From a virus: a DNA stretch of 45,385 nucleotides. Positions 1,097-4,980 of this stretch are shown here, piece by piece (position 1 is the stretch's first letter; the number at the start of each line of letters is the position of its first letter). Under the pieces are notes generated by a model that was not told the origin of the DNA, did not search any database, and saw only the letters and a program-made list of their open reading frames with translations. The translations under genes and the position numbers were made by a program. The stretch is from the IMG/VR virus record IMGVR_UViG_3300028886_000153, positions 1-45,385 of that record; one strand, written 5' to 3'.

Positions 1097-1810
1097 ATGT
1101 CAAAACTTATTGATTTAACAGGATAGAAATTTGGTCGTTTAACCGTTTTACATAAAGATAATTCTCGTAAAACTTCTACAGGTAGTTATTGGGTTTGTCA
1201 GTGCGACTGTGGAAATATTGTTAGCGTTAGAAGTTTATCTTTGCGAAATGGTGAAATATCCAGCTGTGGATGTTATAGAAAAGAAAAACTTAGTTAGTTA
1301 AAAACTGAAAATTTAGCTGGAAGGCGTTTTGGATTATTAACAGTAATCTCATTATCTGAAAAGAAAAATAATAGAGTTACTTGGCTATGTTAGTGTGATT
1401 GTGGCAATAAAATAGAAGTAACTGCACATGATTTAAAATCTTATCACACATAGTCTTGCGGGTGTTAGCACGAATCTCTAGGTGAAAGAGAAATTAAATT
1501 AATTTTAGATTAGAATAACATTCCATATATCCCTCAATATCGTTTTCCAGATTTTGTAAATCGCATATATGATTTCGCAATCGTAGAAAATAATACAATT
1601 ACTCGCTTGATTGAGTTTGATGGAGAGTAGCATTATAAAGAAAATTTGCTTTGGAAAGATTCGCTTTTAGAAATATAGAATAGAGATAAAGAAAAGAATA
1701 ATTATGCATTAACTCATTCAATACCTCTGGTGCGGATTCCATATTGGGAAAGAGGCAAAATTACATTAGATAAATTATTTAATGACAAATTTTTAATTAA
1801 AGGAGAATAA
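1097..1810 (+). CDS. multicopy family protein: tandem (LxGQxFGxL...YWxCxCDCGN...SCGC) zinc-ribbon-like repeats + C-terminal Vsr/PD-(D/E)xK-like domain (FDGEQHYK...RIPY); putative homing-endonuclease-like selfish gene; 8 in-frame TAG
   Basis: ATG 1097 after AAAGGAGTGA RBS; single frame open to TAA 1808-1810 only with TAG=sense; 3 internal repeats; paralogues at 4252-4980(-), 8619-9521, 37430-38356 and remnant 18714-18950. Confidence 0.7.
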
Positions 1811-1814
1811 TATT

Positions 1815-4229
1815 ATGTCAGATACCTTACAAAAAGATCTCGTCCTATCCACAAACGAATATGCCTACGTCCTAGATCAAACCAAAGGTTTCATTTCCTG
1901 TCTGGTTGGTCCGACAAAAATGTCCCTATCTCAGAGCGATAGTCTGGTTACTTTTAACACTAAAACCAAAAGATTTGAGCCCTGTTCTTATGCACAAGCT
2001 ATTAAAATTCTTACTATTTGTCCAGAAAACTGGTACTGTATTTTGAAGAATCCTGCAAAAGACAACAAACATCCTAATCCTGGAACTTCAAATACACTTC
2101 CAGAAGGAATGGCAGTGGGGAAGAAAATCAATATTACCGGTCCCGTGAGCTTTGCTCTCTACCCCGGTCAGATGGCAAAAGTGGTTCGTGGTCACGCTCT
2201 TCGTACCAACCAGTATCTCCTTGCGCGCGTCTATGAGGCTGCGGCCGCAAGCTCCTCTTCCGGAGAAGTGCGTGATGCCGAGGGTAATGTAATTGACACC
2301 AAGGCCACCTATGTCAATGGTCAGATTCTGGTCATCAAGGGTACCGAGGTTTCCTTCTACATCCCGCCTACCGGCATCGAAGTCATCCCCATCAACAATG
2401 ACGACTCTAATGGTTATATCCGTGAGGCTGTGACCCTTGAGCGTCTTGAATACTGCATCCTCAAGGACGAAGATGGTAACAAGCGTTATGTACACGGCCC
2501 GCAGGTTGTGTTCCCTGAGCCTACCGAGACTTTCGTGACCAGCCCCAAGGGCGGATACGTGTTCCGCGCTGTTGAGCTCTCCCCCATCAGTGGTATCTAT
2601 GTTAAGGTCATCGCTGAATATACGGAGGGTGATAAGACTCATCCCGTTGGCGAAGAGCTGTTTATCACTGGTAATGACCAGATGATTTATTACCCCCGTC
2701 CGGAGCATGCTATCATCACTTATGATGGTAAGATGATGCATCACGCTATCGCAATTCCCGAGGGCGAGGGTCGCTACATTATGAATCGCCTTACTGGCGA
2801 AATTAAGACCGTTAAAGGTCCGCAGATGTATCTTCCCGATCCTCGTTATGAGGTGGTTGTGAAGCGTAAACTGTCTCGCCACCAGTGCGAACTGATGTAT
2901 CCTGGTAATGCCGAAGCTCTCGCGTACAACGAGCAGCTTACCGAAAAGACTCTGGAAAAGTCTCTCAAGACTATCTCTATGGACGAGTTCACCGCATACA
3001 GCACTTCCAATAGTATTGGCGATACTCTCGCAAATCTTGAGGCCAAGGCAAACATCTCTCGCGGCACTTCCTATACCAAGCCTCGTACCATCACGCTGGA
3101 TACTAAGTATGAAGGCGTTGTAACTACTGATGTATGGACTGGTTATGCTGTCAATGTTATCAGTAAAGATGGTACTCGTGAGGTTATTTGCGGCCCGCAG
3201 ACCGTCATGCTGGATTACGACCAGACTCTGGAAGAGCTCCAGCTCAGCACTGGCAAGCCCAAGACTACCGACCATCTCATTCATACCTGTTTCCTTCGTT
3301 ATGAGAATAACAAGGTTAGCGACCTTATCAATGTTGAAACTAAGGACTTCGTGCGTTGCACTGTCAAGGTTTCCTACTGCGTTGATTTTGACAAGCAGTA
3401 CTCTGATAAGTGGTTCAGCATAGACAACTACATTAAGTTTATGACTGACCGTGAGCGTTCTCTGATGAAGCGTGCGGCCAAGAATTACACCATCGAAGAG
3501 TTCTACCAGAACTACGTCGATATCATTCGCAATGTCGCTGTCGCAAAGGACGAAGGTGGCGAGCATCCTGGTCGCTTCTTCCCGGAGAACGGTATGTATG
3601 TCTCTGACTGCGAAGTTCTCTCCATTGATGTTGAGCGCGACATTGCCGAGATGCTTATCAATCATCAGCGTGATATCGTTGAGCGTTCTCTTGAACTCTC
3701 TACTGCCGATAAGCGTGTTCAGGTTGCTGAGCAGCTCGCTATCGCAGAGAAGAAGGAGAACGAAGTTGAGAGCCAGAAGCTCATTGACAAGATGAATCTC
3801 CAGCGCGAGGAGGCTGTGCGCAAGCTGGCTATCCAAAGCGAGGTAAATCGTCTGAAGGAAGCTGAATCTGAAGCCGCTAAGAAAGCAGAGCAGGACCTCC
3901 AGGTTATGATTGACGCTATTGCCGAAGCCGAGCGTGCGCGCAAGGCTAAGGACCTCGAGCAGGAACTGGCTTACAAGAATGCGCTAGCTGACATTGAGAA
4001 GGCAAAGAAGAAGGCATATGCCGATACCGTCGAGCAGATCATGAAGTCTATCGCTCCTGGTCTTATCGAGAGTATGAGCTCTAATGCAAATGCGGATCTC
4101 GCTAAAGCGATTGCGGCAAGCGTCAGTCCTTACTCCATTGCCAATGATGAATCTGTAAGTGATACTGTAAATAAGCTGCTTCGCGGCCTTCCTATCGAAA
4201 CCCTACTGGATAAACTAAAAGCAGAATAA
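1815..4229 (+). CDS. major vault protein (MVP) homologue, 804 aa, no TAG codons
   Basis: N-terminus NEYAYVLDQTKGFISCLVGPTKMS matches the MVP repeat-domain start ([23 protein letters not shown]); repeated GEELFITG../GPQ.. MVP-repeat-like units; FPENGMYVSDCEVLSIDVERD..LINHQRDIVERSL matches the MVP shoulder region ([31 protein letters not shown]); C-terminal coiled coil like the MVP cap-helix; RBS formed by the end of the upstream gene (AAAGGAGAATAA). Confidence 0.8.
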   Translation: MSDTLQKDLVLSTNEYAYVLDQTKGFISCLVGPTKMSLSQSDSLVTFNTKTKRFEPCSYAQAIKILTICPENWYCILKNPAKDNKHPNPGTSNTLPEGMAVGKKINITGPVSFALYPGQMAKVVRGHALRTNQYLLARVYEAAAASSSSGEVRDAEGNVIDTKATYVNGQILVIKGTEVSFYIPPTGIEVIPINNDDSNGYIREAVTLERLEYCILKDEDGNKRYVHGPQVVFPEPTETFVTSPKGGYVFRAVELSPISGIYVKVIAEYTEGDKTHPVGEELFITGNDQMIYYPRPEHAIITYDGKMMHHAIAIPEGEGRYIMNRLTGEIKTVKGPQMYLPDPRYEVVVKRKLSRHQCELMYPGNAEALAYNEQLTEKTLEKSLKTISMDEFTAYSTSNSIGDTLANLEAKANISRGTSYTKPRTITLDTKYEGVVTTDVWTGYAVNVISKDGTREVICGPQTVMLDYDQTLEELQLSTGKPKTTDHLIHTCFLRYENNKVSDLINVETKDFVRCTVKVSYCVDFDKQYSDKWFSIDNYIKFMTDRERSLMKRAAKNYTIEEFYQNYVDIIRNVAVAKDEGGEHPGRFFPENGMYVSDCEVLSIDVERDIAEMLINHQRDIVERSLELSTADKRVQVAEQLAIAEKKENEVESQKLIDKMNLQREEAVRKLAIQSEVNRLKEAESEAAKKAEQDLQVMIDAIAEAERARKAKDLEQELAYKNALADIEKAKKKAYADTVEQIMKSIAPGLIESMSSNANADLAKAIAASVSPYSIANDESVSDTVNKLLRGLPIETLLDKLKAE
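2240..2249. repeat. TGCGGCCGCA palindrome copy 1 (in MVP gene)
   Basis: exact 10-mer. Confidence 0.9.
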
Positions 4230-4240
4230 AATAAAAAATA

Positions 4241-4270
4241 CCGAGTGGCATTTATACCACTCGGTATTTT
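4241..4270. terminator. bidirectional rho-independent terminator (CCGAGTGG-loop-CCACTCGG + T-run); loop contains the TAA of the minus-strand gene 4252-4980
   Basis: perfect 8-bp stem, U-run on both strands. Confidence 0.6.
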
Positions 4271-4980
4271 GTTGTTTCCAATAATAAATCATCAATACAT
4301 AGATCTTGTAAATGAGTATATGGAATGCGAATTAAAGGAATATTATTTTCTTCGCACCATTTTGTTTTATACTAATCATGCTCTAATCTTTTCTCAAAGC
4401 GTTCTTGCTTATCCCAAGACGTATTAAATTTTTGAAAATGCTAAATACCATCATACTCTATTAAAAAAGAATTATTTATAAAAAAATCAAATCGAGCTAA
4501 AGCAAAAGAATCTGGAAAACGACAATCTTCAAAAGTTTTTTGAGTAATAAAATTAATATTATTAGCTAACAAAATTTTATTAATTTTTTCCTCACCAAAA
4601 GAAATTCTACATCCGCAACTAGTAGTGTGGCCAAAACGTAAATCTATTCCTTTTACAGTAATTATATTTCCACAATCACATTTGCATTTCCATAAAGCCT
4701 AACCCTATTTATTAGAACCAATATTTTCTAAGGCGATAAGTTTTCCAAAACGCTGATTGGTAATATCAATAAAATTAGTATTTCTTGCGGCCGCACGCTA
4801 TAAGCAGCCACAAGATTTCGTATGCCCTGACCGTAAATGCTAGCCACTAACAATTATAGTTTCAGGATTTCCACAATTACATTTACATTCCCAATGAATA
4901 CGAGAATAGTTTCCTTCGGCTTTTTTTATCACAGTTAATTTTCCAAAATTCTATCCAGTTAAATCAATAAAACTAGGCAT
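4252..4980 (-). CDS. paralogue of the CxCxCGN-repeat/Vsr-like family (242 aa; 7 in-frame TAG), inverted relative to copy 1097-1810
   Basis: minus-strand ATG 4978-4980 with GAAGGGATGTGAATGAAAA RBS region; MPSFIDLTGQNFGKLTV..HWECKCNCGN..SCGC..TNQRFGKL..LWKCKCDCGN..EYDGIQHF..LIRIPY; one repeat uses CAG where others use TAG. Confidence 0.7.
4786..4795. repeat. TGCGGCCGCA palindrome copy 2
   Basis: exact 10-mer. Confidence 0.9.

Follow-up and report, generated by a model that had tools for sequence, protein, structure and literature searches.

Two groups of phage enzymes are among the closest to the genes that are considered here. The first comprises the EDxHD or Vsr-like homing endonucleases, whose prototype is I-Bth0305I (PDB 3R3P; Dassa et al. 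2009, PMC2677866; Taylor et al. 2011, PMC3239194). The second is formed by the free-standing homing endonuclease genes (HEGs) of the T4-like and other phages, such as the Seg and Mob genes (PMC10448857; PMC2988022); where HEGs bracket conserved genes the arrangement has been called a “HEG island” (PMC10448857). Here, we examine a family of AT-rich genes in a 45,385-nt stretch of viral DNA (IMG/VR record IMGVR_UViG_3300028886_000153, positions 1 to 45,385; this entire stretch is called the window) that contains four copies of the family, which we name A, B, C, and D, and a 3′ remnant of another. An original prediction, made from the letters of the window, had viewed the family as selfish and homing-endonuclease-like and had supposed that it shepherds or mobilizes cargo, in particular the genes for a major vault protein (MVP)-like protein and a flotillin. 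We conclude, with a probability of roughly 0.8, that the copies are free-standing HEGs of the Vsr-like (EDxHD-type) nuclease lineage, carried by a large phage of Firmicutes type in which TAG is decoded as Gln. They are a known kind of mobile gene that is well documented here and not a new cargo-moving system.

Copy A (positions 1097..1810, plus strand) encodes 237 amino acids (aa) and has 8 in-frame TAG codons, two Cys-rich repeats (aa 1-~65 and ~66-125) and a nuclease domain (aa ~124-237). Two repeats and a nuclease domain are also found in copy B (4252..4980, minus strand; 242 aa, 7 TAG), which is convergent on the MVP-like gene, and three repeats precede that domain in copy C (8619..9521, plus strand; 300 aa, 5 TAG), which is located between an RlaP-like gene and a metallophosphoesterase gene. 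The divergent copy D (37430..38356, plus strand; 308 aa, 8 TAG, GC 0.26) has one degenerate and one canonical repeat in addition to the nuclease domain, and is inserted in the replication module at the point where genes of 114 aa and 310 aa meet. The original prediction had placed and oriented all four correctly and had rightly seen that they are AT-rich and TAG-dense unlike their neighbors: the GC content of the family genes is 0.26-0.33 and they contain 17-34 TAG per 1000 codons, against 3.6 in the remaining genes. Pairwise protein identity among the four copies is only 30-40%. The decayed remnant (18712..18927, plus strand), which extends from the DGxQH motif to the C-terminus, is equally real, as judged both by its translation with TAG read as Gln (IIGD*HYKF..NRDCLKNKYCLEYNIKLYRIPYSQ, in a frame offset from the 18714 start first given for it) and by tblastn, in which the last ~60 family residues (~176-235) match 18706-18900 with E = 7e-6 to copy A and 2e-5 to copy C. 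It starts directly past the terminator hairpin of the flotillin gene, which it had been said to adjoin.

For the comparison with other phages, the MVP-like, flotillin, and Sak4 proteins served as anchors and yielded 80, 51, and 42 related phage loci, respectively (designated L and a number); family members were mapped in these loci by tblastn with TAG read as Gln.

Under translation table 11 copies A-D are not open reading frames (ORFs), each being interrupted by 5-8 in-frame stops, and they are missing from the ORF list made with that table. Taken at face value, this would make them pseudogenes or chance ORF-like stretches, a view that we consider vanishingly improbable. All the internal stops are TAG, never TGA or TAA, and all four copies end in TAA. 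The TAG codons fall at positions that are conserved as Gln in the paralogues and homologues (LTG*KFG for LTGQxFG, C*CDCGN for CQCDCGN, and DGE*H for DGEQH), and homologues in related phages likewise carry in-frame TAGs. A full-length protein identical to copy A exists in the public databases (P0001, on a 71.7-kb ENA contig); the AlphaFold2 model is confident (predicted local distance difference test score, pLDDT, 88); and ORF calling with TAG as a sense codon also completes many other genes of the window. Furthermore, relatives encode tRNA(CTA) genes (L003, 186-260; L048, 234-308; L058, 2993-3067; L060, 2356-2446), all labeled “Pyl” by ARAGORN. They belong to tRNA arrays at a distance of a few kb on the upstream side of MVP and, as putative amber suppressors, may be what allows these phages to read TAG as Gln. 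On the basis of the TAG-only stops at conserved Gln sites and the tRNA(CTA) genes of the relatives, we conclude that the phage uses TAG = Gln (genetic code 15), a known phenomenon (bioRxiv 10.1101/2021.08.26.457843).

The C-terminal domain had been likened to the Vsr-type nucleases, and this assignment is supported. The block E..D..ExDGxxH..D..K..RIPY is conserved in 4/4 copies, and the domain is predicted to adopt a Vsr-type restriction-endonuclease-like fold. In the numbering of copy A, which is used throughout, D159, E173, D175, G176, H179, and K200 are invariant in all 62 homologues compared, D197 is present in 61/62 and E130 in 49/62. The loss of catalytic residues that the original prediction had named as a possible objection is therefore not what is found: the acidic, His, and Lys residues are invariant save at the last two positions. 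A MAFFT alignment pairs E130, D159, D175, and D197 of copy A, column by column, with E170, D196, N208, and D222 of I-Bth0305I (sequence taken from phage 0305phi8-36, NC_009760, with the published numbering verified) and E25, D51, H64, and D97 of Vsr, and this holds in all four paralogues. D159 and E173-x-D175 are on the strands expected for a PD-(D/E)xK enzyme, the third position is Asp instead of Lys, and the invariant K200 is on the next helix; the D159/E173-x-D175/K200 pattern is Vsr-like and not canonical PD-(D/E)xK.

This differs from the names under which such proteins are usually filed. The PHROGs endonuclease families that the four copies match, with E values of 1e-14 to 1e-56, go by the names “HNH endonuclease” (phrog_374 and phrog_559), “homing endonuclease” (phrog_9084), and “intron encoded nuclease” (phrog_7140). 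The family has more than 7,800 homologues, and the 597 cultured-phage records that contain it (from Staphylococcus, Pseudomonas, Streptococcus, Bacillus, and Enterococcus phages among others) are labeled “HNH endonuclease” or “hypothetical.” We reject an HNH identity: there is no Pfam HNH match at E <= 1, the nuclease domain has a predicted Vsr fold and no beta-beta-alpha-Me HNH motif is present, so that the “HNH” labels in PHROGs and GenBank appear to be mis-annotations. An NCBIfam search of the family proteins returned nothing relevant. A Vsr-like repair function can also be set aside, since the multicopy, sporadic, and AT-rich nature of these genes is the behavior of mobile genes.

The N-terminal part was described in the original prediction as 2-3 zinc-ribbon-like repeats. 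Tandem Cys-rich repeats are indeed there (1-3 in each copy); the zinc-ribbon label was discarded, since they are predicted to fold as small beta-barrels. No curated library models these repeats, and a DNA-binding N-terminus of the NUMOD/helix-turn-helix (HTH) type was not found in copies A-D. By analogy with other homing endonucleases of modular build, the repeats may bind DNA and set target specificity, and it is plausible that they bind metal.

The evidence for mobility comes from the comparison of occupied and empty sites in related phages. Copy A is preceded by a sigma-70-like promoter motif of 44 nt (TTGATT-17-TATAAT, 982..1025, plus strand; direct-repeat family D2, promoter scan 10/12). 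In the window, ~800 bp (1032-1829) separate promoter and MVP, a segment that holds only copy A. The distance is 27 bp in L003, the closest relative (MVP 84% identical), where the conserved promoter motif leads straight to the ribosome-binding site of MVP. The same motif is found upstream of MVP in L003, L019, and L064, and directly precedes the MVP gene in relatives. The last codons of copy A (AAAGGAGAATAA) provide the Shine-Dalgarno sequence of MVP. At the site of copy B, a 2.1-kb segment (4201-6290) that also contains a 388-aa zinc-ribbon/transmembrane gene corresponds to 79 bp in the same relative. The promoter scan gives copy B a promoter-like site of its own (minus strand, 5032-5005), and a bidirectional terminator hairpin (4235..4270; inverted repeat I8, terminator-like on both strands, 14-16 bp stem) serves both this copy and the convergent MVP gene.

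At the copy C site, an orthologue that is 76% identical is found in L034, and other family members fill the site in ~10 loci (L011, L016, L019-21, L026-28, L064). L014 and loci like it have an empty site of 20 bp, and two unrelated small ORFs are present at this place in L003. Between L016 (~900 bp) and L014 (20 bp), the flanks are 95-97% identical. The right boundary of the site is the start of the phosphoesterase gene, beside the codons of its conserved GDTHG motif, and this start region differs between occupied and empty alleles. In the occupied alleles of L016, L019, L020, L021, and L064 (e.g., L016 11490-11560), other sequence stands in place of the phosphoesterase start region, with SDTHG instead of GDTHG, and there is no canonical start codon in frame between the upstream stops and the SDTHG motif. 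The window's own metallophosphoesterase ORF, if read from the ATG at 9505, overlaps copy C; the relatives indicate a start at TTG 9542, with a Shine-Dalgarno sequence ahead of it.

L019 and L064 bear witness to a very recent event: they are 99.8% identical across 8.5 kb, yet only one of them has, upstream of MVP, a gene that resembles copy A. Where this gene is present, the gene ahead of it has undergone many substitutions in its last ~35 codons, mostly synonymous and with the protein conserved, a pattern that would be expected of a co-converted, cleavage-resistant flank. At the copy D site the flanking genes are only 25-50 bp apart in most relatives, and a GIY-YIG-type gene is inserted there in L138, L139, and L170. 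The best match of the remnant is an intact copy directly past the flotillin gene in L106 (score 150, compared with 74-102 for the window paralogues), from which we conclude that it is the decayed positional orthologue at a recurrent site; in L106 this intact copy is followed by a duplicated 3′ fragment of flotillin. Sporadic presence and absence by gene-sized insertions or deletions (indels) with exact boundaries in conserved flanks is thus observed among related loci whose genomes are otherwise 95-99.8% identical, and divergence of the flank in occupied alleles is seen in the L019/L064 upstream gene, the phosphoesterase start, and the flotillin 3′ duplication. The selfish, homing-endonuclease-like character attributed to the family is supported by these indels, hot-spots, recoded flanks, and decayed copy, and the presence/absence polymorphisms foreseen around the MVP and flotillin genes did appear when related loci were compared.

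The same observations can be set against another reading, in which these have ceased to be true homing elements and are domesticated or weaponized nucleases (for marker or superinfection exclusion of competing phages, or as regulators) that are kept for the benefit of the phage, their sporadic distribution being mere turnover of accessory genes. None of the four copies, diverged as they are, has lost its catalytic residues, which argues for selection on activity; copy A forms part of the MVP operon, to which it contributes the Shine-Dalgarno sequence; and both the domestication of HEGs and their benefit to phage are documented (PMC10448857; PMC13096335). Nevertheless, the clean gene-only indels, including that between 99.8%-identical genomes with its recoded flank, the insertion hot-spots in common with GIY-YIG genes and the existence of a decayed copy are the marks of invasion and decay and not of a stably useful gene. 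We therefore judge domestication to be unlikely as the general explanation, although the two roles are not mutually exclusive.

Whether the family moves cargo is a separate question, and here the original prediction has to be corrected. It supposed that paired copies act as the ends of a composite element that mobilizes the MVP/flotillin island by endonuclease-stimulated recombination. In the window phage, MVP is indeed flanked by two copies; homing is known to co-convert flanking markers; gene-bracketing “HEG islands” have been described (PMC10448857); and the segment with copy B and the 388-aa gene is missing from L003. The MVP-like gene (1815..4229, plus strand; 804 aa, GC 0.48, no TAG; Pfam MVP_shoulder 1e-20, Vault_3 2e-9) is nonetheless a resident that is not part of a mobile element. 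It is present in 80/80 relatives, where its GC content is above that of its flanks (median 0.43 vs 0.34) and it is essentially TAG-free regardless of nearby endonuclease genes, so that its composition is a clade-wide trait. No family member occurs within 6 kb at 49 of the 80 MVP loci and none is adjacent at 72; the 47 family copies at the other 31 loci lie at varying positions, all co-oriented with MVP and none on the minus strand, with an adjacent copy upstream in 4, downstream in 4, and on both sides in 0. The bracketing of MVP by oppositely oriented copies is therefore unique to the window phage (0/80 relatives). Nor do the two copies form inverted repeats around MVP, as had been supposed: the convergent A and B proteins are ~38% identical, and the DNA inverted repeat around the gene is only 51 nt at 78%, which leaves no usable DNA repeat. 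For flotillin, the order up189-up264-Flot-dn144-PhoH is kept in most of the 51 relatives. Copy C, which had been placed inside a cargo island, is really at the junction of two conserved genes. We therefore reject a composite-transposon-like cargo element, which in our estimation is very improbable; the MVP-like and flotillin genes, conserved in synteny with or without endonuclease genes, are the residents and the endonuclease genes are the variable, mobile part. The MVP-like protein, a homologue of the eukaryotic major vault protein with a long C-terminal coiled coil, is encoded on at least 80 large phage contigs (including L003-L082; 39-84% identity), and its role in a phage may hold more interest than the endonuclease genes do.

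Several points weigh against our identification of these genes as Vsr-like HEGs. Sequence methods alone fail to tie the domain to Vsr or I-Bth0305I: Pfam yields only a sub-threshold DUF2726; phmmer and a family profile run against the PDB sequences gave no meaningful match; and hhalign produced no alignment between the family profile and E. coli Vsr (in a sequence that reproduces the published numbering). Ala replaces E130 in 13/62 homologues, and in the MAFFT alignment the invariant H179 is one residue ahead of H213 of I-Bth0305I and H69 of Vsr. No suppressor tRNA, indeed no tRNA of any kind, was found in the window or in an extra 10 kb of the source contig. Some of the “insertions” are replacements of other small ORFs, and the presence/absence patterns could in principle also be explained by illegitimate recombination or deletion. 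Finally, we infer homing and cleavage by members of this architecture from sequence and predicted structure.

With these reservations, the life cycle of the putative HEGs can be pictured as follows. The one to three Cys-rich modules, predicted to be small beta-barrels, would constitute the DNA-recognition part, and their differing number and sequence among the paralogues would direct these to different target sites; E130, D159, D175, H179, and D197, together with K200, would form the active site of the C-terminal nuclease. When a cell is infected by two related phages of which only one carries the HEG, the enzyme would cleave the uninvaded allele of the other, either right at the position that the HEG itself occupies or beside it; in most cases this position is where a conserved neighboring gene begins or ends (its 5′ or 3′ edge). 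Recombinational repair from the HEG-carrying genome would then copy the HEG and some of its flank into the cut genome. Later, copies would diverge, decay, or be replaced. Since the genes are dense in TAG codons, the full-length enzyme would be made only once amber suppression, by a suppressor tRNA such as the relatives may encode, is active, and endonuclease production would be delayed or confined as a consequence. Copy A uses the MVP promoter for its transcription, and MVP itself is free of TAG; hence the translation of copy A, in contrast to that of MVP, should depend on amber suppression.

The density of TAG in these genes is indeed extreme. The ratio of TAG to CAA is 28:19 in the Vsr-like genes, as compared with 29:117 in the other genes with GC < 0.38 (Fisher odds ratio 5.9, p = 7e-7), and it is 21:33 in the GIY-YIG genes (Fisher p = 0.009 against the same reference). 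TAG and CAA have an equal GC content, so base composition is no explanation for this preference. There are no TAG codons at all in the GC-richer genes, i.e., the MVP-like gene (1815-4229) and the genes in 5113-8569 and in 10364-18665, flotillin included. The genome is split by its use of the code: the GC-richer genes have zero TAG, the replication genes a few, and the mobile endonuclease genes the most. The TAG-free set (MVP-like, flotillin, RNA ligase, RNase T-like, NADAR, phosphoesterases, and the RlaP-like nucleotidyltransferase) resembles an RNA-repair cluster. Borges et al. found one intron endonuclease to be preferentially recoded in TGA-recoded phages and proposed that its production is thereby delayed (bioRxiv 10.1101/2021.08.26.457843). 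The present bias extends that single observation to free-standing genes of two families, the data being no proof of its function. We tentatively put forward two linked possibilities, which we think rather less probable than probable when taken jointly. The extreme TAG density of the Vsr-like and GIY-YIG genes may be adaptive, tying nuclease production to an amber-suppression switch that times cleavage to late or mixed infection and confines the selfish genes to the recoded lineage. The tandem Cys-rich repeats, in turn, may be an undescribed modular DNA-recognition domain whose repeat number and sequence set the target specificity.

Other features of the window deserve a brief description. The promoter motif upstream of copy A has further copies at 5056-5099 and 6291-6334. 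This ~44-nt motif (TTGATTTTTATAAAAAA(T)TATTATATAATATATATAGAAAATAA), often with a terminator hairpin ahead of it, recurs at the boundaries of gene cassettes and is conserved between phages. Cassettes such as the 388-aa gene (5113-6279), which the window phage alone possesses, could be exchanged by means of the homology that this motif provides. Three AT-rich and TAG-rich GIY-YIG homing-endonuclease genes are present at 25557-26342, 28062-28775, and 43741-44478 (PHROGs 314, 7168, 5123). A 342-aa protein (34885-35913) with a C-terminal GIY-YIG domain was initially counted with them; its position is the same in nearly all relatives, so that it may be a resident and not a mobile gene. The large subunit of a GyrB-like topoisomerase II is split into two pieces, 26224-27885 (positions 11-519 of phrog_543) and 28964-29329 (positions 533-646), between which lies the GIY-YIG gene 28062-28775 (GC 0.26); the split gene (26224-29329) is either a “fractured gene” or an intron arrangement. 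Among the relatives, Sak4-like and DnaB-like genes are interrupted by inserts of 0.4-1.2 kb, some of them GIY-YIG-similar (L149, L161, L165, L168, L169, L173); such interruptions are suggestive of introns, inteins, or fractured genes, and selfish elements are unusually abundant in this clade.

This locus offers a clean and well-resolved natural example of the HEG life cycle, with its invasion, hot-spots, flank recoding, and decay, in an uncultivated clade of large TAG = Gln phages. The family that is routinely called “HNH endonuclease” or “hypothetical” carries a nuclease that we place with the Vsr/EDxHD type and a Cys-rich repeat module that is uncurated, and the Vsr/EDxHD assignment helps in annotating such genes, which may also prove to be a source of new sequence-specific nucleases. 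A TAG bias of this strength broadens the basis for the idea that recoding may gate endonuclease expression.

How, then, do these genes compare with the described systems? With the EDxHD enzymes they share the alignment columns of E, D, x, and the final D, a C-terminal nuclease domain that follows a presumed DNA-binding region at the N-terminus, and a phage-borne and, in some cases, free-standing nature. In contrast to these enzymes, which have NUMOD/HTH motifs, the N-terminus of the window copies consists of 1-3 Cys-rich repeats, predicted to be small beta-barrels; there is no sequence-level similarity detectable by HMMER or hhalign; and the window copies are outside introns and inteins. Compared with I-Bth0305I, the x position is Asp in place of Asn, and the invariant His is one residue nearer to x (DGxQH in the family vs NGVYWH). 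The different N-terminal architecture and this one-residue shift qualify a full EDxHD/Vsr-like membership. The only annotated protein that is directly matched by the C-terminal profile is gp194, a “homing nuclease” of the same phage 0305phi8-36 (NC_009760, 114861-115373; EMNGRQHY..ECDRRKRK..GVTLITIKY; E = 2e-5 in a 5-sequence search and 1e-3 in a 50-kb ORF set). It has 170 aa and a short CxxC..CxxC N-terminus, unlike the LxGxxFGxL/WxCxCxCG/SCGC repeats of the window copies, and the first Asp of its motif fails to align with the family. To E. coli Vsr (PDB 1CW0), DUF559, and DUF2726, the family is linked by the weak Pfam DUF2726 matches and by the ExDGxxH...D...[RK]...(I/V)R block of the DUF559/Vsr core; it differs from Vsr in being without the N-terminal segment, the intercalating Trp of FWH, and the zinc site, in its fusion to repeat modules, and in its multicopy, sporadic, and AT-rich genes. 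In behavior, there is a parallel with the free-standing HEGs of the T4-like and other phages: insertion is intergenic and beside conserved genes, distribution is sporadic among close relatives, hot-spots are common to several HEG families, flanks are recoded, copies decay, and genes come to be bracketed by HEGs. Two features set the window copies apart from those HEGs: their nuclease class is Vsr-like rather than GIY-YIG or HNH, and they reside in a phage with TAG = Gln, of which the HEGs are the most TAG-rich genes.

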